This document shows positions 1 to 10,169 of a DNA stretch of 64,000 nucleotides, in pieces. Within the stretch, counting starts at the first letter, position 1, and each line of letters begins with the position of its first letter. Below the pieces are notes generated by a model that was not told the origin of the DNA, ran no database searches, and worked only from the letters and a program-made list of their open reading frames with translations. Both the position numbers and the translations under genes were made by a program. The stretch is from Myxococcota bacterium (GTDB lineage: Bacteria; Myxococcota_A; UBA9160; JAFDDA01), in contig OZ245817.1 in NCBI GenBank assembly GCA_965228475.1, forward strand, positions 2,496,001 through 2,560,000. The letters are read 5' to 3'.

Positions 1-892
1 GCCTCTGGATCTTCGCCGCCAGCTGCGCCGGCATTCGCTCGAGCTCGTGCGATCGAAATGACGCGACCAGCCGAACACCAGCGGGACGCAGCTCCCTTGC
101 CAGAGCTTCGAAGAGCACGATAGATGACGGATCACCGACCTGGAGGTCGTCGATCGCGACCAAGACAGGCGAATCCACTGCCAGATCCGACAGCGCCTGC
201 CCAATGGACTCGAACGCATCAAAGAGAATCATGCTTGCGGAGCTCGCCGCTTTCGCCTGCCGGGACTGCATCGCAGAGAGCTCCGACTCCCAGCGATCAG
301 CCAGGCCGAGTGATCGAAACACCTGCTGCCACGGGGTATACGGAGCGCCTCGGCGCGCCTCAGAACAGCGCCCCACCGCAACGCGACATCCCCTCCGTCT
401 AGCCCGCAGCGCGAACTCTTCTATCAGTCGAGTCTTTCCTATTCCCGCCTCTCCCAGCACCAGCGCAACTCCGGTCATCCCAAGATCGAGATCGATCACG
501 CTTGTCAACTGCGAGAGCTCAGTTCTCCTCCCTACAAACCCTTGAGACTCGGTTCGCAGCTCGATGTTCTGATGATCGCTGTCAGCTTCTCGGACATTAA
601 CGAGCCACCGATACCCCTTCCCGTACACTGCCTGGATCGTTGTAGGATTGTCCGCCGAGTCGCCGAGGGCAGTCCTGAGTGAATTGATGGCAGTCGGAAT
701 AGTCGAAGCAGCGATCGCCCGCCCTTGCCAGATCTCCTCTTGAAGCTCGGCTTTTCTGACTACTCGATCGCGATTGCGGATGAGATAAAGGAGCAAGTCA
801 AAGACCAACTGCCCAATCTCTACGGGCTGGCCGCGACGAAGCAGAAGCCGCCTGCCTTCGTCCAACTCGAAGTCCGAGAACTGAAAATGCAT
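1..892 (-). CDS. Winged-helix (OmpR/CadC-type) DNA-binding domain + AAA/STAND-type ATPase transcriptional regulator, 3' end runs off the window
   Basis: Not in the ORF track; translated by hand from ATG at 892: MHFQFSDFELDEGRRLLLRRGQPVEIGQLVFDLLLYLIRNRDRVV..LRTALGDSADNPTTIQAVYGKGYRW (wHTH), then FVGRRTEL, Walker A GEAGIGKT, Walker B VLVAIDDLQ; frame open to position 1. Confidence 0.85.
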   Translation of the reverse strand, partial: MHFQFSDFELDEGRRLLLRRGQPVEIGQLVFDLLLYLIRNRDRVVRKAELQEEIWQGRAIAASTIPTAINSLRTALGDSADNPTTIQAVYGKGYRWLVNVREADSDHQNIELRTESQGFVGRRTELSQLTSVIDLDLGMTGVALVLGEAGIGKTRLIEEFALRARRRGCRVAVGRCSEARRGAPYTPWQQVFRSLGLADRWESELSAMQSRQAKAASSASMILFDAFESIGQALSDLAVDSPVLVAIDDLQVGDPSSIVLFEALARELRPAGVRLVASFRSHELERMPAQLAAKIQR

Positions 893-1018
893 CGGCGATC
901 AGTCTAAGGCGAGGGGAGGCCGGTCTGCGCCGAACCGATGCAAAGAGCCGAAAAGCAAGGTAGAAACCCTCGCTAGATCATCAGAAAGCCTCAGAAGCCC
1001 CGCAAGGCGCAGGGCGCC

Positions 1019-2488
1019 TCACCCGATCGAAACCGAGACCCGAAGCTCCTCGCCCGCGGGGTTGAGTGGCCCGACACTCAGCGGTCCAAAGAAGCCGGCA
1101 CCGAGCTCGGAAGCGGCTGCCAGCTCAAGGGATTCCATGACCCTCGAGGCCACCAGGTCGGGCGCCACTCCAGGATCGAGGGGCACCACCAATGCAACCC
1201 GCCCACCCGCGATGGTGACCCCAATTGTGCCACCTCTCCTAGCGAGCCCGACACAGAGCACGAGGAGCAAAGCAAGGCAGAGAGTGAGACGAGACCTCGG
1301 CCCCGAGACTTTGCCCGACTCGACGTCCGTCGCGATTGAAACCCCGGCCCGGCCCACGGCCGCAGCGATCCCCTCAGCAGCCTCGGAAAGCAGCTCGCTC
1401 AAATCGCACAAAGTGCAAGCCTCGATTCGATCGCTGCGGACCTCAGCGATTAAGTCCTCCAAGACCCTCGCTGGACGGAACCCTGAAGCTAGCAATAGGG
1501 CCGGCGCCGCAAGGACCTTGAGCTGATCGACTTCGACCGACACCGATTCAGCCGGCTCCATCGAGCGAGCGTTCTCGATCGCAAGAGAAACCTGAGAGGC
1601 TAAGCCCTCCAAGAGTGCGCGTTCGGCTGCCCGAAAGGACCTCCCGCCCTTCCGATTGTCAACCACCAACACGCCGACCGCGCCTCTTGGCCCCACAAGC
1701 GGAACAGAAAGGATCTCTTCTGCGGCTAGCTCCACAGCCAGGGTTCTGCCGACCGGGCCGAGCTCCGTCGCGGTCTCTGCAACGACCAACTTCGTCTCTC
1801 CCGAGCGAACGGATTCGAGCCACGGCCCCCCATTTGCCTCGTCGATCGAAAGCTCACAGGCAAGACCGCCATCGGGGTCGGAGCTCTCTGAGCTAGCCAC
1901 CATCGTCAACCGGACTCCTGCCTTGTCGAGGATTCCGATCATCGCAGCATCGAACCCAAGATCTGAGGCCACAGCCCGGACCACAAGCTTTGTGAGGCGG
2001 TCAAGGTCGGATTCAGAGCCGATTTGGTGGCTAATCGATCGGACGGCTGTCAGTTCCCGGAGAAGCGAGTCCTTCTCAGACTCCAGGGCATAGAGGTCGA
2101 TGGCTTGCACCACCACCTGCCTCATCTGATCGGGCGACCAAGGCTTCGGGATGTACCGGTAGATCTTCCCGTGGTTGACTGCGTCCGCCAGGGTTTCTGC
2201 GTCACCGTATGCGGTGACCAAGAGGCGCACTGTCCTCGGGTCGACCTCCCGCACCCGAGAAAGAAAATCGGTTCCCGTCATCTCGGGCATTCGGTGGTCG
2301 CTGAGCACGACGGAAATAGGGTGTTGATTGATCAGGTCGAGCGCGTCAGCGCCGCTCTCAGCCGTATAAATCGTGAAATCTCGACGAAAGGCGAGTTCGA
2401 AGGCGCGCAGGTTCGCCCTCTCATCATCTACGTAGAGGACAGGGAACTCTCGTCGATCCACGAGGCGTTGCGGCTCAGGCTGCATCAA
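1019..2488 (-). CDS. Response regulator: REC + GAF + degenerate histidine-kinase-like C-terminus
   Basis: REC motifs LYVDDE, SDHRMP, LVTAY, KPW; GAF signature VPLVGPRGAVGVLVVDN..LASQVSLAIENAR; C-terminus resembles HATPase but lacks a clear H-box and G-boxes; start TTG 2488 or ATG 2485 overlaps the upstream stop. Confidence 0.85.
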   Translation of the reverse strand: MMQPEPQRLVDRREFPVLYVDDERANLRAFELAFRRDFTIYTAESGADALDLINQHPISVVLSDHRMPEMTGTDFLSRVREVDPRTVRLLVTAYGDAETLADAVNHGKIYRYIPKPWSPDQMRQVVVQAIDLYALESEKDSLLRELTAVRSISHQIGSESDLDRLTKLVVRAVASDLGFDAAMIGILDKAGVRLTMVASSESSDPDGGLACELSIDEANGGPWLESVRSGETKLVVAETATELGPVGRTLAVELAAEEILSVPLVGPRGAVGVLVVDNRKGGRSFRAAERALLEGLASQVSLAIENARSMEPAESVSVEVDQLKVLAAPALLLASGFRPARVLEDLIAEVRSDRIEACTLCDLSELLSEAAEGIAAAVGRAGVSIATDVESGKVSGPRSRLTLCLALLLVLCVGLARRGGTIGVTIAGGRVALVVPLDPGVAPDLVASRVMESLELAAASELGAGFFGPLSVGPLNPAGEELRVSVSIG

Positions 2489-5261
2489 TGTTCTCTTCTG
2501 GGAGCCAGATCTCGAAGCAGGCGCCGTCGCCTAGAACAGAAGACACTCCGATCGTCCCGCCGTGGCTCTCGATAACCTGCCTCGAGATCGAAAGGCCGAG
2601 CCCCGTGCCCTTCCCTGCACCTTTTGTCGAGAAGAACGGGTCGAACAGTCGCGCTATGTCGTCAGGCTCGATCCCGGGCCCATTGTCACGAATCGCCACT
2701 TGAACCCCGCTGGCGTGGGCCTCGATCGATACCGAGATCTTTCCACCCCCTCCTTCTTCGAGAGCCTCCGACGCGTTCTTTAGGATGTTCAGAAGGACCT
2801 GACCGATCGCCTGTGGGTCTCCCACCACAAGAGGAACGCCCTCTGCGCAGCTAACCGCGACAGAGACGTTCTTCTCTGCCATGGAGTGCCGCAAGAATCT
2901 CGAGACAGAATCAACAGACTGGACGACGCTGAAATGGACCTTCTCACCGAGGGCTGGCCTGGAGAAGTCTCGAAGATCTCCTACAAGCTTTCCCGTTCGC
3001 TCGAGGCCTTCTTCAACGATACCGGCGAGCTCTATCACCGCGCTGGACGTATCGCTCAACTCAGCCAGCCGCAACCGCTCGGAAATCTTGGCTTTCTCTT
3101 CACCTGACAGAGGCGGCCCGCTCTCTTGAACCAGCCCACAAACCTCACGAGCTGCCGATACGAGATCCTCGATGTAGGGCTTCATGGCACGGACCGCATT
3201 CACGGAGTAGTTCACAGGGTTGTTGACTTCGTGAGCGACACCAGCTGCGAGTTCGCCTACCGCTGCCAAGCGCTCCGATTGTACGAGCTGGGCCTCCGCC
3301 TCCTTCAGCTCATCCAGCGTCGTCTCAAGTTCGTCGTTCGCATGCTCTAGAGCGCGGTTCCGTTCCGCAAGCTCAGTCTGCAGCTGCCTGAGCCGTACCA
3401 AGCTCCGCACCCGGGCGAGCAGCTCCCGCGAGTGGAAGGGCTTCGTAACGTAGTCGTCAGCCCCCAACTCAAGGCCCTCAATCTTCATCTCGCGCTCTGC
3501 CTTGGACGTGACCAAGATCACCGGCAGAGCTTCAGTCGTCGAATCACATTTCAACGTCTCACAGAGCTCAGTCCCCGACATCTCCGGCATCATCACGTCC
3601 GTCAACACCAGATCTGGCATTCTGCGCCGCACTTCCTCGAGGCCCTCCCGTCCATTCTTCGCCGTCCGGACTGCGAACTCACTCGACAGGACGTGAACCA
3701 AGAGCCTACGCATATCCGGGTTGTCCTCGCAGACCAAGACGTCCGGCATGTCCGCTCCGCCCTGGCCAGCCTGCGCCCCCTCATCGTGCGCACTCCCTTT
3801 CGTACGCTCCCATCGGTCTACCGATCGCTCTAGATCCAGGAGCTTGCTCGCCTCCTCATGGTCCCGCGAGAGCTGAGCGTCCAAATCTGCGAAGCCTGAG
3901 ACCTGCGACCTTTCCCTGGGTGCATCCGCAAGGACATCTTCCCTCGCAACGTCCTCTTCTCCTTGTGGCAAGGTCACAGCCACGTTGGTCCCGAAGCCTA
4001 TACCCTTGCTAACCGCCCAGATCTTTCCACCGTGCAGCTCGACCAGCTCTTTCGAGAGCGCCAGGCCAATCCCCGTTCCTTCGTGCCGACGAGTTGACGA
4101 ACCATCGGCCTGGGCGAAGCGATCGAAGATCCTCTCGCAGTCACGAGGCTCAAGGCCGATGCCTGTATCCGACACTTCGAGCCTTATTCCATCACCATCA
4201 GCACGAGCGCAGACAGAGATCGACCCGCCCGAATCCGTGAACTTCAATGAGTTTCCAACTAGGTTGATCAACACCTTCTCGAGTGCATCCGGGTCCGCGT
4301 TGATCGAGAGAGACTCATCGAACTCGCCAACGCTGAGATTGACTCCCTTCTTGCGAGCCAGAGGCTGAGCTCCCGACACGATGTCTGCCGCAAGCTGAGC
4401 CGGCGATACCAATCGGCGCTCGATCCTAAGTTGATCACTCTCAATCTTCGCCAGATCGAGCAGGTTATTGATCAGCTTCAGTAGCCTGAGCGCATTGACG
4501 TGCATCGTGCGCAAGTAGTCGCGCTGGAGCGGGTTGACTTCGCCGAACTCACCCCCCAGAAGGCTCTCGAGCGGAGCGAGGGTCAACGTAAGGGGCGTGC
4601 GAAGCTCGTGGTGGACGTTCGCAGTGAATCTCGACTTCTGCTGGTCGAGCTCCCGCAGGGTGTCTCGCGCCTTCTCGACCTCTCGACGCCGAACGAAATC
4701 TCGAAAGCGGCTGTTGTCGATAAGCGCGGCACTAGCGATGCAGACGATTCCGGCCGAGAACAAGAACACCGAGCTCATCAAGAATTCACGCCAGGGGATC
4801 TCCCATGGCAAGACCAACGGAGAGCATGCATAGAGTCCGAACGTGCAGACGCTCAAGACTGCCGCTTCTCGTACTGAGAACGGCAACAGGACAGGAACGC
4901 CCGCAAGGAAGAGGATTAGCCCGACGTAGTAGCCGCCAGAGGGCTCGCCGGTACCGAAGATCACCATTCCCAGCATCGCTTCAGTCGACAGAGTCAACGC
5001 CCACTTCGAGACAGGCGCAGGAACCCCACTGGAGGGCGCGAAGAACAGCCCGATCAGTCCGACTTGGAGAGCGCATCGAACCAGGAAGAAGTCTGCGAAT
5101 TGCGCCGGGAAGAGGTAGAAGTCAGAGAAGACGAAGAGGACGTTGACGACAGCAGTCGTCACCACTCCGGTGCGAATGTAAGAGCTTCCACCATAGTGGT
5201 TGAGCTCTCGCCAGTACGCTTCGTAGGAAGCTCTGCCTGCCTCTTCTACCAAACCGGCCAT
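2475..5261 (-). CDS. Membrane hybrid sensor kinase: multi-TM sensor + HisKA/HATPase + REC + second HisKA/HATPase
   Basis: About 5-6 hydrophobic helices; H-box HHELRTPL, N-box NLVGNSLKFT, DTGIG, GTGIGL; REC VCEDN/DVMMP/KPF; second H-box AHEVNNP, NILKNA, DNGPG, GTGLGL. Confidence 0.92.
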   Translation of the reverse strand: MAGLVEEAGRASYEAYWRELNHYGGSSYIRTGVVTTAVVNVLFVFSDFYLFPAQFADFFLVRCALQVGLIGLFFAPSSGVPAPVSKWALTLSTEAMLGMVIFGTGEPSGGYYVGLILFLAGVPVLLPFSVREAAVLSVCTFGLYACSPLVLPWEIPWREFLMSSVFLFSAGIVCIASAALIDNSRFRDFVRRREVEKARDTLRELDQQKSRFTANVHHELRTPLTLTLAPLESLLGGEFGEVNPLQRDYLRTMHVNALRLLKLINNLLDLAKIESDQLRIERRLVSPAQLAADIVSGAQPLARKKGVNLSVGEFDESLSINADPDALEKVLINLVGNSLKFTDSGGSISVCARADGDGIRLEVSDTGIGLEPRDCERIFDRFAQADGSSTRRHEGTGIGLALSKELVELHGGKIWAVSKGIGFGTNVAVTLPQGEEDVAREDVLADAPRERSQVSGFADLDAQLSRDHEEASKLLDLERSVDRWERTKGSAHDEGAQAGQGGADMPDVLVCEDNPDMRRLLVHVLSSEFAVRTAKNGREGLEEVRRRMPDLVLTDVMMPEMSGTELCETLKCDSTTEALPVILVTSKAEREMKIEGLELGADDYVTKPFHSRELLARVRSLVRLRQLQTELAERNRALEHANDELETTLDELKEAEAQLVQSERLAAVGELAAGVAHEVNNPVNYSVNAVRAMKPYIEDLVSAAREVCGLVQESGPPLSGEEKAKISERLRLAELSDTSSAVIELAGIVEEGLERTGKLVGDLRDFSRPALGEKVHFSVVQSVDSVSRFLRHSMAEKNVSVAVSCAEGVPLVVGDPQAIGQVLLNILKNASEALEEGGGGKISVSIEAHASGVQVAIRDNGPGIEPDDIARLFDPFFSTKGAGKGTGLGLSISRQVIESHGGTIGVSSVLGDGACFEIWLPEENIDAA

Positions 5262-5271
5262 TCAGACCAGA

Positions 5272-5297
5272 ATCGGTAGAAAACACAGCTTTCTTGA
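5272..5297 (-). promoter_or_regulatory. Putative sigma28/FliA-like promoter TCAAG-N15-ACCGAT upstream of the hybrid kinase
   Basis: Minus strand reads TCAAG aaagctgtgttttct ACCGAT, 10 nt before the ATG; the same geometry recurs at 40713-40738 and 58576-58601. Confidence 0.4.
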
Positions 5298-5357
5298 GCT
5301 GCTATTGCTGATACCGCAGCGCGCGGTCGCAGCTCCCAGCTGACGCAGGGGACTTGG

Positions 5358-7856
5358 CTAACTGGGCCTTATCGCTGACAGAACGATCGCCTGCGGAGGG
5401 TCACCGAACCCACCGGATGTACGCACGGACGAGAAACCTGCCCGCCGAACCATCTCCTGCAGCTCGACTTCATCCCAAAAGTGGAACCGACCGGCCTCCT
5501 CGAGGTCAAGGATCCGAGCGGCGTCGTTGAGAAACCGACGCAGCGACTCATCAACCGCAGTCTCGCCAACACTCCCTAGCAACTCACTCGCTCGACCGGA
5601 CCTCAACTCCCGAACACCCTCGACAAACAGTCGAGAGATGTCCGCGTCCTTCCGGAGCGTCGAAAGGACCAGCCTCCCCGACGGACGAAGCATCCGATAC
5701 ATCAGCTTAATCTGAGCTTCGGGTTCTTCAACGTAGGAGAGAAATAGGGACGCGAGAAGGGCATCGTACCTGCCCTCGAAGCCACCTGCTGAAACCACCC
5801 CTGTATCGGCGAGGTCGCATTCGATGTAACGAAGAGAGACGCCATGAGGCGTGCCGACCTTTTCGATTCGAGTTCTTGCGTGCTTCAATGCCTCGGGAAC
5901 GAGATCTATCAGGTCAACCGTGATTCCCTGCGGAGCCCCAGACTCCAGCAGCCTAAGCGGGAATGCTCCTGTGCCAGCGCCGACATCCGCGACCCGATCC
6001 CCAGAGCCTAGGCCTAAGGCGAGAATCTGCGTATCCATGAGGCGCTGGTACGGCTCGATCGCATTCATCAAATCGATCCCGAGCCCCCCGTCCCGGCCGA
6101 GCAGGTAGTTGCGCCAGAAGTCCACGGCATTGATCGATGGTGCGCCGACCCGTGCTCGCTCTGCCTTCCTCTTCAGCTCCAATGCCGAAACATCGGGAAG
6201 GCCAGGAGCAAGCTCCATTTCCGTAGCCATCTTTCCGATCTCGACTGCGATCAACTGGAACACTTCGATCGCCTCTTGACTACTCCGCAGCTGATGGCCA
6301 GTGGGTACCTCAAGCAGTTTTCGCCTCGACGTATCGCCGAGCGCCATAATCTCGCGGACGCGGGTCAAGTCTAGCCACGCATCGAACTTACCGTGGATCC
6401 AGGTGATTGGAACGTCGATCTCAGCCATCTCTCGACGAGAGTCTTCCAGAAAGGCTAAGTCGTTCCCAATCGCGTCACTCGCGACCCTATCGATGTCTGT
6501 CGTTACGCCCATCAGTTCCTGAATTCCGAACTCCAGTCCCTGCTCGGCGCCACCGATGAAGTCCAGCCCACCCGAGACCTTCTTCAATCCTGACTGGAGG
6601 TCGGGAGCACCGACAACGCTAACCCAACCTTTGATGAGACCAGTCTGGTCTGCCACAACAGCCCTCCTAGCCTCGATCGATGCGGCGCTGAAGCTGACCA
6701 AAATGGCGGTTTGGGTGGCGAACTCAGGAGAGGTTGAGAAGTAATCAACCGTGGCCTGAATGTCCTTCACGCCCTCGGAAATCGAGAAGTGCAGATTCTC
6801 CATTCCTTCGGTCAGGCACTCGGGGTCATTGTGGGACTCACCTCTTTTCCGAACACCATCGAAACGAACGACCACCACAGGAACGTTTGCTTTCTCGAAG
6901 GTGGCCAGAATCGTCGCCGCCAAGGGGAGCAAAGTCTCCTTCGTCCGACCCCAAGCAGGGGGGATAACGACCAGCGTTGCCCCTCTTCTTTCCCCGACAC
7001 TGTCAACGATCGCCACGATCTCTTCGCCGCGGGAATTTGGGTACCTCACCACCTCGATACGTTCCGAGGTTCGTTTCGCTCGCCCGAGGGCTCCACGAAT
7101 CACAGCACTCGCGCCAGCAGCTGCAAGGCTCAGCTTCTGCCTGATCCGAGAGCCTGCTGGTAGTTGGAGAATCGAAGAACGGCGCTCCACTGGGTAGAGA
7201 TCTGTGGGTCGGACAGAACTAGTAGACAACCCAACCCGGCTCCACCCGGCCCGCGTGGGAGCCGCGGACTTTCGGCGCAGCTGTGCCCAGCGAAGCGCCT
7301 CTCCATGAATCTCCACTCGAAACGAGGACTCTAAGTCCTGCGCGCCTCTTGTCGGCAGCTCAACTTGAAGGCCGTCCGCCGAGAGATCAACAACCCGACC
7401 TCTAGCTAGAGTCGCGCCAGACTCTGAGTAGATCGATACCTCTCGCGCTCCCCCCTCATCAACTCGGCTGCGGCGCCGATCCCGGCGCTCCGCGCGGTAG
7501 ATCCTACTGGGCATGGGCGCGACCACGCGGTCCGCCACCCCACAATCAGAACTAGGCAAACAGACGAAGAAGTACGGGAGGCCGTCCAGAAAGAAATTGA
7601 GAAGCAACGAACTCTTCCGTGCCTTGTCAAAGTTCTTAGTGCTGAGCGATACGGAGTCGGACCCGACTGTCTCCAAATACGCGGTCTCGGGATCATCTGA
7701 GCGATGCCTAGCCCCAGAGAGGGGAATACGCTCGCGGCACACCCTGGCTAGAACCGCCTGGATCTCTTTGGAATCCTTGATTGCGCTGGCGTGAAGCTCA
7801 TCAATGACACCCGGAGCTATCGGCTGCCCTAGGCGGTACGTAGGAGAGGTCTGCAC
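5358..7856 (-). CDS. PilZN/PilZ + alpha/beta-hydrolase (LuxD-like acyl-thioesterase) + class I SAM methyltransferase fusion (832 aa)
   Basis: PilZ motifs ERRDRRR and DLSADG; hydrolase segments PPAWGRTKE, VRFDGVRKRGES, nucleophile elbow SFSAA, HGKFDAWL, PTGHQL; SAM motif VADVGAGTG, LFLSYV, LRPSGRL. Start moved to GTG 7856 (GAGAAAGG upstream). Confidence 0.8.
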   Translation of the reverse strand: MQTSPTYRLGQPIAPGVIDELHASAIKDSKEIQAVLARVCRERIPLSGARHRSDDPETAYLETVGSDSVSLSTKNFDKARKSSLLLNFFLDGLPYFFVCLPSSDCGVADRVVAPMPSRIYRAERRDRRRSRVDEGGAREVSIYSESGATLARGRVVDLSADGLQVELPTRGAQDLESSFRVEIHGEALRWAQLRRKSAAPTRAGWSRVGLSTSSVRPTDLYPVERRSSILQLPAGSRIRQKLSLAAAGASAVIRGALGRAKRTSERIEVVRYPNSRGEEIVAIVDSVGERRGATLVVIPPAWGRTKETLLPLAATILATFEKANVPVVVVRFDGVRKRGESHNDPECLTEGMENLHFSISEGVKDIQATVDYFSTSPEFATQTAILVSFSAASIEARRAVVADQTGLIKGWVSVVGAPDLQSGLKKVSGGLDFIGGAEQGLEFGIQELMGVTTDIDRVASDAIGNDLAFLEDSRREMAEIDVPITWIHGKFDAWLDLTRVREIMALGDTSRRKLLEVPTGHQLRSSQEAIEVFQLIAVEIGKMATEMELAPGLPDVSALELKRKAERARVGAPSINAVDFWRNYLLGRDGGLGIDLMNAIEPYQRLMDTQILALGLGSGDRVADVGAGTGAFPLRLLESGAPQGITVDLIDLVPEALKHARTRIEKVGTPHGVSLRYIECDLADTGVVSAGGFEGRYDALLASLFLSYVEEPEAQIKLMYRMLRPSGRLVLSTLRKDADISRLFVEGVRELRSGRASELLGSVGETAVDESLRRFLNDAARILDLEEAGRFHFWDEVELQEMVRRAGFSSVRTSGGFGDPPQAIVLSAIRPS

Positions 7857-7867
7857 GAGGGCCTTTC

Positions 7868-8056
7868 TCAGTTGAGACGGAGCCTGGAAGGGAACGCAAA
7901 TCCGGCCGTCCTCGACCGATTCCGCCGATCCATCCCGTTTCGCAGGGGCGTGTCGAGCGCTCGCAGGCGCGAGAGGATCTCGACGACCGCGGCGCGGTCT
8001 GCGATGGATTGTCGGTGGAGGGCGCCGAAGGTCGGCTGAGGATTCAGCTGGGTCAT
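7868..8056 (-). pseudogene. 62-aa ORF, truncated paralog of the PilZN N-terminus of the next gene (remnant or mini-protein)
   Basis: LHRQSIADRAAVVEILSRLRALDTPLRNGMDRRNRSRTA aligns ungapped with LHASAIKDSKEIQAVLARVCRERIPLSGARHRSDDPETA of 5358-7856; AAGGA upstream of the ATG; stop lies 11 nt before the next GTG. Confidence 0.55.
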
Positions 8057-8173
8057 GCATCCTTCTTCCGTGAAGTCCGCGCGTAGCCAAGTGGTTGCGA
8101 AACCGCATTCTACTTACGGTAGAAGAAGGGATTCAAGCTGTAGTTGCGAGTTTGGGGTGATAACAACGCGGAC

Positions 8174-9181
8174 TCAGGGCCCGCGGCTGTCCACCTTCTC
8201 GAGCTTCACCCCGGCGTCCGAGAGGATCTCGAGGGAGCTTTCCCCCAGCGGGTAGTCGCCGTTGTAGATCACGGCCACGATGCCCGCGTTGATGATCATC
8301 TTGGTGCACTGCAGGCACGGAGACATCGTCGTGTAGATCGTGCCGCCGCGGACCGGGACCCCGTGGTACGCGGATTGGACGATGGCGTTCTCCTCGGCGT
8401 GGGAGCACAGGCAGGTATCGAGCCCCGCCCCGCTCTGCCCGAAGGCGTTGCAGCGCGGGCAGCCCCCTTCGTTGCAGTTGCGCACGCCGCGGGGGGTGCC
8501 GTTGTAGCCCGTGGCCACGAGCCGGCGATCGATCGTGATGACGGCCCCGACCTTGCGCTTCACGCAATTGCTTCGAGATGCAGCCACCTCGGCAATGTTC
8601 ATGAAGTACTCGTCCCAGTCAGGGCGCTCGAAAAAAAGCGAGCGGGAGAGGATGGTCTGGATCGCCTTGTGGAGTTCCTCCTTGCCGCCGTCGTTGCGCA
8701 GGGTGAAGTCCGCCAATGCCTGGACGGCCGCCATCTGCTGCCCGGCGGCGTTCTCGCCCCCGCGCTCCCGGCCTTCGAGCTCCTTCAGGCGCTCGAGGGT
8801 CTCCGGGTCACCCGGGCGGGCCCTGCCCTTCAGGCGCTCGAGCCGGGTCTCCATGTCTGCGTCGACCCACACGAGCTTGAAATCGCCGTGGGCCTCGCGA
8901 AGGGTCTCGACCTCCGCGGGGTGGCGAACGGAATCGACGACGTAGTTGCGGTCCGGCGCGAGCTTGTCGAGCAGGCGGACGGCCAACGCCCCCGGGCCGT
9001 AGCGCTCGCGCAGCTGGGTGCCGACCTCGATCATGCGCTCGCGCGATTCTTCGAGCCCGCGCTCGCGCAGCTCGTCGCGCAGGACGTCGGAAAGCGAGAG
9101 CGCATAGAAGCTCCGGCTTTCGAGGTACGCCATGACCTCGCCCTTGCCTGCACCGTAGGGCCCCGAAAGACCGAGAATCAT
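8174..9181 (-). CDS. P-loop nucleotide-kinase-like domain fused to deoxycytidylate (dCMP) deaminase
   Basis: GPYGAGKG Walker A, VVDSVRH; RPDWDEYFM, GYNGTP, HAEENA, PCLQC zinc-deaminase motifs; GGAGG RBS before ATG 9181. Confidence 0.9.
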   Translation of the reverse strand: MILGLSGPYGAGKGEVMAYLESRSFYALSLSDVLRDELRERGLEESRERMIEVGTQLRERYGPGALAVRLLDKLAPDRNYVVDSVRHPAEVETLREAHGDFKLVWVDADMETRLERLKGRARPGDPETLERLKELEGRERGGENAAGQQMAAVQALADFTLRNDGGKEELHKAIQTILSRSLFFERPDWDEYFMNIAEVAASRSNCVKRKVGAVITIDRRLVATGYNGTPRGVRNCNEGGCPRCNAFGQSGAGLDTCLCSHAEENAIVQSAYHGVPVRGGTIYTTMSPCLQCTKMIINAGIVAVIYNGDYPLGESSLEILSDAGVKLEKVDSRGP

Positions 9182-9287
9182 GGTGTTCCCCCCTCCCCTC
9201 ACTTATCCCGGTGCGCTGCGGGGGTCAAGCGTTCCGGCTCCGGACCGGCCTCGGCGAGCTTGGCCGGCCCCAGGAGCGGAGACTCGC

Positions 9288-10028
9288 TCACTTCCGGCGG
9301 CTGGCGAGAAGCAGAAGGCCCGCGAAGCCCGTGGCCATGGCCAGCAGGCTGCCCGGCTCCGGTACCGGCAGGCTCACGTTCGTGAATGTGATCGTCGTGA
9401 AGATCGGGAACTGGTTGCCGAGGACTGAGACGAAGGTCGGCGAAACCAGCGTAAGCGGGCCCGAGGCGCCCGCTAACGTGACGATGTTCGTGCCCGAGTT
9501 CACCGCGCCGACTCCCGTGCTGAAGACGGCGGCGTCTATCGTGAAGGGCGAGGCCGTGGCACCCCCCTGACCGAGCTGAGCCGCGTTCAGATCGACCGGG
9601 ATCGGGACGATGACCGGAGTGAAGACGTTCACGAAGCCGTCGAGGCCCATGGCCCCACCGACACCGCCACCCGTGTTGCAGGCGATGCCCGGTGCGACGC
9701 CGCCACCGCACACTTCCCCTGGAGCATGGACCGTCACGCCACCGGCCGAGAACGTGCCAGCCTGGTTGCTGATGGTCATGGCGGCAATCGAGTTGATCGC
9801 CGTGGTGGAGGTTACGGGCACGACGACCGGAGCCGGCAGCGAAACGGTGCCAGCAGCAATCGACACGGTGCTACCGGACACCGAAACCGTTCCGACTTCC
9901 GAGAAGGAAATCGGGCTCAAGCCCTGAATCGTCAGCGTGAAGATGATGTTCGTCGCTACCGGCGCCGCCTGGACGACTCCGCTCACCAAGAGCGACCACG
10001 CGGCCACGATTCCGAAGAACCAACTCAC
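9288..10028 (-). CDS. PEP-CTERM sorting-domain surface protein (Gly/Thr/Val-rich)
   Basis: GTG 10028 after GGAGGAG; signal peptide ending VQA-AP; C-terminus VPEPGSLLAMATGFAGLLLLASRRK. Confidence 0.88.
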   Translation of the reverse strand: MSWFFGIVAAWSLLVSGVVQAAPVATNIIFTLTIQGLSPISFSEVGTVSVSGSTVSIAAGTVSLPAPVVVPVTSTTAINSIAAMTISNQAGTFSAGGVTVHAPGEVCGGGVAPGIACNTGGGVGGAMGLDGFVNVFTPVIVPIPVDLNAAQLGQGGATASPFTIDAAVFSTGVGAVNSGTNIVTLAGASGPLTLVSPTFVSVLGNQFPIFTTITFTNVSLPVPEPGSLLAMATGFAGLLLLASRRK

Positions 10029-10169
10029 GAAAGCTCCTCCCAGCCTGCGGCAACGCCGTCTCCGGACGCCGCGACGACTGACGGAGCCTTCCGCGCCGCG
10101 GCTCCCGAGGCCGCACCGGCCTCGAGTCACGACCCTAACACAGGACTCGGGCGGGCTCGGTACCGGCGC

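Follow-up and report, generated by a model that had tools for sequence, protein, structure and literature searches.

The fused enzyme and its parts

The 64,000-nucleotide stretch of a Myxococcota bacterium genome analysed here (contig OZ245817.1, positions 2,496,001 to 2,560,000; hereafter the window) encodes on its minus strand an 832-residue protein (P0001; 5358..7856) that joins a putative PilZN-PilZ module, a LuxD-like hydrolase and an S-adenosylmethionine (SAM) methyltransferase in a single chain, followed on the same strand by a membrane hybrid kinase and a REC-GAF protein. The minus-strand open frame extends from 8108 to 5358 and is longer than the called gene. The start codon is likely GTG 7856, because it is the last in-frame ATG, GTG or TTG down to 7750, has AAAGG 5 nucleotides upstream and agrees with the lengths of homologues, in which a median of 17 residues precede the column of H22, compared with 21 in P0001 started at this codon. 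A homologue search found 286 proteins, of which 120 are listed, nearly all full length and 41-53% identical; once the record of the window itself and five matches, most of them partial, had been set aside, 114 were aligned. The motifs that a preliminary description had picked out from the letters alone are all present (ERRDRRR at residue 123, DLSADG at 157, SFSAA at 388, KFDAW at 490, TGHQL at 519 and DVGAGTG at 624), and the three-module anatomy that it proposed is borne out by an AlphaFold model (predicted local distance difference test, pLDDT, 91; predicted template modelling score, pTM, 0.90) and by conservation of the motifs across the 114 homologues. The model places, in order, a beta domain (residues ~24-121), a linker with the RxxxR motif, a PilZ barrel (139-213), a helix, the hydrolase (268-545), which is the best-conserved part of the protein in the alignment, and a class I methyltransferase.

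The motifs for binding cyclic di-GMP (c-di-GMP) are intact, as had been described, but the N-terminus consists of two beta-rich domains (residues about 24-121 and 139-213) and not of one. The first (7494..7787, minus strand), recognized from the strands of the model, from Foldseek and from a weak match to the PilZ profile (probability 34%), probably corresponds to PilZN in a tandem of the YcgR/FlgZ type: Foldseek matched the model to 3KYF, the structure of the PilZN-PilZ protein PP4397 with c-di-GMP, at E 6.2e-11. The RxxxR motif (7470..7484, minus strand; R125-R129) has both arginines in 114 of 114 homologues, and the barrel (7218..7442, minus strand) contains D157-x-S159-x-x-G162 at 7371-7388; RxxxR and [D/N]x[S/A]xxG occur at canonical spacing in 111 of the 114. 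The Pfam PilZ family scores P0001 at 16-18.5 bits, below its cut-off of 22.5, and matches 16 of 20 orthologues at E<=1 (best E 2.4e-8). Since the module is fused to two enzymes, its likely target is intramolecular. The genome has 18 GGDEF matches.

The alpha/beta hydrolase (6222..7055, minus strand) has a predicted triad of S390 (6687-6689), D492 (6381-6383) and H521 (6294-6296), all three invariant in 114 of 114 full-length homologues and in 66 of 66 full-length proteins of a distant subfamily. Its resemblance to LuxD, suggested in the preliminary description, holds by three methods: LuxD (1THT) is the top match of the model by Foldseek (E 1e-13), by VIA (full model, Z 29.1, root-mean-square deviation 2.8, 277 residues aligned, next esterase Z 25.2; hydrolase alone, Z 26.8 versus 25.0 for the next) and by a 37-row hydrolase profile (E 1.5e-8, next match E 0.014). 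A profile of 20 rows reached LuxD at E 0.14 only, so that 37 rows were needed; the hydrolase alone has no significant Pfam match, and single-sequence Pfam and PDB searches failed to identify it. The LuxD triad is presumably completed by D211 and H241. In the profile alignment S390 falls on LuxD Ser114 and, by counting, D492 on D211, and the alignment ends a few residues short of the histidine. Ser114 is the acylated residue of LuxD, which passes through an acyl-serine intermediate and is termed a transferase (PMC6279958). Membership in the LuxD family itself (PF02273, NF052253) was rejected: PF02273 has no match at the locus, and among distant relatives P0217 reaches 34.6 bits against a Pfam cut-off of 20.3 and 33 bits against an NCBIfam cut-off of 420. 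No luxC or luxE is found among the annotated neighbours of the enzyme gene.

The class I methyltransferase (5367..6134, minus strand; residues about 575-830) carries motif I, DVGAGTG, at 5967-5987, and this SAM motif is present in 113 of 114 homologues. Only generic class I families are matched in Pfam and NCBIfam, and only generic methyltransferase clusters in Atlas. BioC (29 bits versus a cut-off of 185) and cyclopropane fatty acid synthase (CMAS, 12.6 bits versus 27) were rejected as identities, as was the PhcB family, with which the preliminary description had invited comparison: identity is 15%, the match is of generic class I type and scores 14-32 bits, and homology does not extend to the family level. 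A PhcB-like profile finds no domain above 10 bits on P0001.

The sensor kinase and the slot before it

The preliminary description treated the enzyme alone and missed its place in a signalling cassette. Separated from the enzyme gene by 97 bp, the kinase gene (2475..5261, minus strand) encodes 928 residues in the order sensor-HisKA-HATPase-REC-HisKA-HATPase, and its sensor domain (4635-5225, minus strand) is, by profile comparison, homologous to PhcS. The sensor profile (43 rows, from kinases beside the enzyme) aligns over the whole membrane domain with two further proteins, namely a Paraburkholderia plasmid kinase whose gene comes after that of a PhcB orthologue (L217; 75 bits, or 102 with a broader version of the profile) and a protein that bears the name PhcS (P0534; 60 bits, or 91); in a control search of the window's own genome, the best non-cognate score was 9.3 bits among 11,989 open reading frames, ~20 of them kinase-like. 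For the sensor domain, Atlas offered only MASE-type leads; MASE8 was matched in 9 of 43. In Ralstonia the signals are 3-hydroxy fatty acid methyl esters, produced by PhcB and perceived by PhcS (PMC9197120, PMC11298618, PMC13532016).

The kinase is a near-constant companion of the enzyme. By tblastn or hidden Markov model, the methods used for both kinase and MMPL counts, a same-strand kinase lies downstream of the enzyme in 49 of the 50 GTDB loci (out of 68) whose downstream sequence reaches 3.5 kb or more, and the sensor family is present in 32 of the 36 distant-subfamily loci with at least 4.5 kb (80 metagenome loci in total). Among 225 sampled genomes of this Myxococcota class, 96 have the sensor, 80 the enzyme and 76 both; the four genomes with the enzyme only are all fragmented, and two of their matches lie at contig edges. 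Two loci have a second PhcS-type kinase and a sigma-54 regulator upstream of the enzyme (L051:3281-7221 and L104:4836-8883), an arrangement that suggests two receptors at one locus.

The 20 genomes that have the sensor only indicate what may stand in place of the enzyme. Seven have a PhcB-like methyltransferase in the enzyme slot, and a second locus in G165 makes an eighth case; in ten the contig ends before the slot, and of the other three one has a fragment of a cyclopropane synthase, one a fragment of the enzyme at a contig end and one an empty slot. Wherever the slot is visible it holds a SAM methyltransferase, save in G080. Four occupants are standalone PhcB-like proteins of 330 residues accompanied by an MMPL gene and a divergent gene (a desaturase in G038); these four are close kin and seeded the PhcB-like profile. 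The other four are PilZ-PhcB fusions of ~490 residues with intact c-di-GMP motifs (L198:6676-8136, L202:6815-8353, L211:3908-5497 and L213:4656-6110), behind each of which lie genes for a cyclopropane fatty acid synthase and for a kinase of PhcS type; they represent, judging from their domains, a second candidate c-di-GMP-gated synthase. The PhcB-like profile scores 117-141 bits on these fusions and on named PhcB. The slot proteins are 25-30% identical to the named Cupriavidus PhcB, and relatives of the short form bear the PhcB product name. In the 225 genomes there are 14 PhcB-like matches in 12 genomes, 8 of them on the same strand within 3.5 kb upstream of a sensor, and no PhcB-like gene occurs in the 68 enzyme loci.

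PhcB-like genes also occur on plasmids. The conjugative Paraburkholderia graminis plasmid mentioned above (NZ_CP024936.1, L217:4583-11013) has a cyclopropane synthase, a phcB orthologue, a phcS-like kinase and two response regulators, and standalone PhcB-like methyltransferases are found on 125 Rhizobium plasmid records. A hidden PilZ domain at the N-terminus of Burkholderiales PhcB was considered but found no support (probability under 3%; motif in 0 of 41).

Neighbouring genes and distribution

Downstream of the kinase, the REC-GAF protein (1019..2488, minus strand) has an intact frame of 489 residues, compared with about 555 in relatives; its C-terminal kinase is decayed and without an H-box, which is kept in 17 of 18 orthologues. 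A receiver-plus-kinase gene of this PhcR-like type lies downstream in 20 of 34 long loci, its kinase part being decayed in the window's own genome. Just before the window (L021:5120-5884) lies a gene for a conserved protein of ~220 residues with a hydrophobic N-terminus and no Pfam match; 19 of 34 long loci have a protein of this type after the response regulator. A winged-helix/AAA (STAND)/TPR regulator of 997 residues (1..892, minus strand), which extends beyond the window, is found in 16 of the 34, as is the common upstream landmark, a kinase-dCMP deaminase fusion (8174..9202, minus strand) that is probably outside the function of the cassette. Further upstream, 9288-10130 (minus strand) encodes a protein with a C-terminal PEP-CTERM motif.

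Genes of lipid metabolism and export are frequent at other loci. An MMPL exporter adjoins the enzyme in 35 of 47 loci and a LolA-like gene occurs in 6 of 68, and variable lipid-tailoring neighbours include a desaturase, an AurF-like oxygenase, a P450, a cyclopropane synthase, an acyl-CoA dehydrogenase and a ketoacyl synthase. In 10 of the 80 distant loci, a count that depends on rough gene calling that sometimes took antisense frames, an acyl carrier protein (ACP) is encoded downstream of the enzyme; most of the ten also have genes for an acyl ligase and a B12 radical SAM protein, and the kinase lies behind the group wherever the contig is long enough. At five loci (L164, L172, L175, L180 and L193) the genes for the enzyme, acyl ligase, ACP and B12 radical SAM protein stand directly ahead of the sensor kinase, an order compatible with a self-contained pathway for a lipid, possibly a branched one.

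The hydrolase profile recovered 601 cluster representatives at E<=0.001. Among the 39 of the best 150 that were scanned for domains, all but one fragment have the methyltransferase and most have PilZ. Close relatives come mostly from Myxococcota or Deltaproteobacteria metagenome-assembled genomes; the distant subfamily comprises proteins of 900-1200 residues with extra PilZ domains, whose sources name Nannocystis and Alkalispirochaeta bins. Two of its members (P0248 and P0258) have an N-terminal receiver ahead of the PilZ domains and might, from this architecture, be under phosphorylation control as well. The members at L117-L133 are sensor-less where coverage permits, keep all catalytic and PilZ motifs, and in many cases lie between a DinG-like helicase and a hexapeptide-repeat transferase. 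No full-length relative of the enzyme was found in a plasmid collection, and no paper on a PilZ/hydrolase/methyltransferase fusion was found in searches of an open-access library.

The cassette region (window 1-8100 and ~2 kb before it) has a guanine-plus-cytosine (GC) content of 58-64%, compared with 70% for the genome, and the enzyme gene has a GC content lower than that of its flanks by more than 3 points in 20 of 33 loci and a higher one in 7. The lower GC content fits a mobile or long-distinct module. In one genome (G003), a single contig, the N-terminal part of the enzyme, the remaining enzyme and the kinase are at three distant places (L073, L112-L113), which reflects either rearrangement or misassembly.

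Proposed function, alternatives and relation to known systems

We propose that P0001 probably makes the signal for a cassette of the phcBSR kind that serves communication between cells, with acyl release and methylation under the control of c-di-GMP. The LuxD-like domain would detach an acyl chain from its carrier, ACP or coenzyme A, giving the free acid; the methyltransferase would cap the chain, the product probably being a fatty acid methyl ester; and the PilZ module, on binding c-di-GMP, would either activate the reaction or shut it off. The lipid would be exported from the cell, likely by an MMPL protein where there is one, and the neighbouring PhcS-type kinase would read it and pass phosphate to the REC-GAF(-kinase) protein. 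Because a methyltransferase fills the slot and yet the fusion is not a PhcB homologue, the fusion is most simply regarded as a PhcB substitute with a similar product. The idea of acyl release followed by methylation had already been put forward in the preliminary description; the anatomy and the likeness to LuxD given there are supported, membership in the LuxD or PhcB family by cut-off does not hold, and the idea itself gains independent support from the PhcS-type kinase, the swap of the slot with PhcB, and the ACP and acyl ligase neighbours.

Several observations weigh against this proposal. The lead of LuxD over generic esterases is modest (Z differences of 1.8 to 3.9). The methyltransferase does not resemble PhcB, and among known structures the folds nearest to it are those of S-, C- and N-methyltransferases (GtmA, with Z 23.1; Coq5; CmoA); with generic family matches besides, the methyl acceptor cannot be read from the sequence, and it is therefore solely the slot swap that points to carboxyl methylation. 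In a quick tree, the four loci with short PhcB-like genes form one clade nested among the enzyme-linked kinases, and in approximately unbiased (AU) tests both groupings were compatible with the data (p 0.379 and 0.144); independent origins of the swap are not established by these trees and tests, and related loci are not independent samples. The count of enzyme-bearing genomes with the sensor is in part circular, since the kinases that went into the sensor profile were themselves enzyme-adjacent. Members of the family that lack the sensor keep every motif (4 of the 36 well-covered distant loci, with 12 of 12 proteins there, and L073). At the window's own locus there is no MMPL gene, the closest being 1.5 Mb away, and the loss of the REC-GAF H-box implies that signal output here may differ or be decaying.

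Some of these observations bear on alternatives that leave the cassette in place. The enzyme might be a make-or-break switch, in which a free fatty acid is turned into its methyl ester by the methyltransferase and set free again by the hydrolase, while c-di-GMP picks the direction. The nearest folds after LuxD are indeed carboxylesterases and lipases (Z 24-25), the standalone PhcB-like enzymes occupy the slot without a hydrolase and hence acyl release need not be built in, and methyl-ester hydrolases acting on the methyl ester of 3-hydroxypalmitic acid (3-OH PAME) appear in the table and the reference list of a review. This explanation is nevertheless unlikely, since the hydrolase profile fits LuxD about a million-fold better than any esterase, and the dedicated ACP and acyl ligase beside some members suit a thioester substrate. 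The lipid signal could also be something other than a methyl ester, with the hydrolase acting as an acyltransferase to another acceptor and the methyl group placed on carbon, nitrogen or sulfur. LuxD makes an acyl-serine intermediate and is called a transferase in the LuxD paper cited above, the methyltransferase has no more than the fold in common with PhcB and has S-, C- and N-methyltransferases as its top structural matches, and the tailoring genes that adjoin the enzyme are variable; but the enzyme swaps with PhcB-like genes ahead of closely related sensors, and because cyclopropane synthases adjoin both the enzyme (4 of 68 loci) and PilZ-PhcB (4 of 4), it appears to replace PhcB and not a C-methylase. 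We regard a signal of this other kind, too, as unlikely.

Two other explanations are less probable still. If the enzyme tailored envelope or membrane lipids for export by MMPL and LolA proteins, with the kinase monitoring that lipid within one cell, the MMPL genes (35 of 47 loci), the LolA-like genes (6 of 68) and the persistence of all motifs in sensor-less members would be accounted for. Yet the kinase (49 of 50) is a far steadier neighbour than MMPL, and its sensor is homologous to PhcS, which makes this explanation quite improbable. In the remaining alternative, a fused CheR/CheB/MapZ-like unit would reversibly methylate the neighbouring kinase as a form of receptor adaptation. The combination of PilZ, esterase fold and methyltransferase next to a receptor is reminiscent of MapZ, CheB and CheR; however, no CheR or CheB family is among the Pfam matches at E<=0.1 or the NCBIfam matches listed, the genes that replace the enzyme encode small-molecule PhcB-like enzymes, and the other neighbours are lipid genes. 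Receptor adaptation is, in our judgement, extremely improbable.

If P0001 is the signal synthase of such a cassette, several consequences follow. Usually c-di-GMP acts downstream of quorum signals or on the expression of their genes; if the synthase carried a c-di-GMP receptor of its own, the amount of signal sent could be set by the internal state of the cell. That two unrelated synthases of this slot both carry a PilZ module suggests selection for second-messenger control of signal output as such. Lipid signalling of the Phc type would extend beyond Burkholderiales to 80 of the 225 class genomes and to distant lineages, and the LuxD-like domain would gain a role outside bioluminescence. A more general interpretation, which we advance tentatively, is that these loci constitute a widespread, undescribed class of quorum sensing with PhcS-type receptors and interchangeable synthases, of which the commonest in this Myxococcota class would be a one-chain enzyme that removes an acyl chain from ACP and converts it by methylation into a diffusible lipid signal, directly controlled by c-di-GMP. 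The enzyme and the adjacent kinase would provide a testable synthase-receptor pair, and an enzyme combining acyl release and methylation in one chain would be of use for the production of fatty acid methyl esters.

Each part of the cassette has a known counterpart from which it departs. The tandem beta domains of P0001, whose linker carries RxxxR and whose second barrel carries DxSxxG, resemble those of YcgR/FlgZ-type receptors such as PP4397 (3KYF), but here they are joined to two enzymes. The hydrolase has the myristoyl-ACP thioesterase/acyltransferase LuxD (1THT, PF02273, NF052253) as its best structural and profile match and shares with it a non-GxSxG elbow and an aligned nucleophile and acid, but it is only 16-17% identical, falls below the family cut-offs and is fused to PilZ and a methyltransferase. 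The kinase has its best NCBIfam match in the LvrA/LvrB type (312 bits, cut-off 1200), and the HK-REC-HK protein paired with a REC-HK protein is reminiscent of Leptospira LvrA/LvrB; LvrA, however, is cytoplasmic with PAS input (PMC5863495), unlike the kinase here with its membrane sensor domain, and identity with LvrA was rejected because the same architecture has a different input. Compared with the phc system of Ralstonia and Cupriavidus (phcB-phcS-phcR/Q; 3-OH PAME and 3-hydroxymyristic acid methyl ester, 3-OH MAME), the synthase is not a PhcB homologue and has its own hydrolase and PilZ module, and the kinase is a 928-residue HK-REC-HK hybrid instead of a protein of about 445 residues. As in phc, a SAM methyltransferase gene directly precedes a membrane kinase with a homologous sensor, and in part of the loci, though with a decayed kinase in the window's own genome, there follows a receiver-plus-kinase protein that resembles PhcR (PMC9102662).

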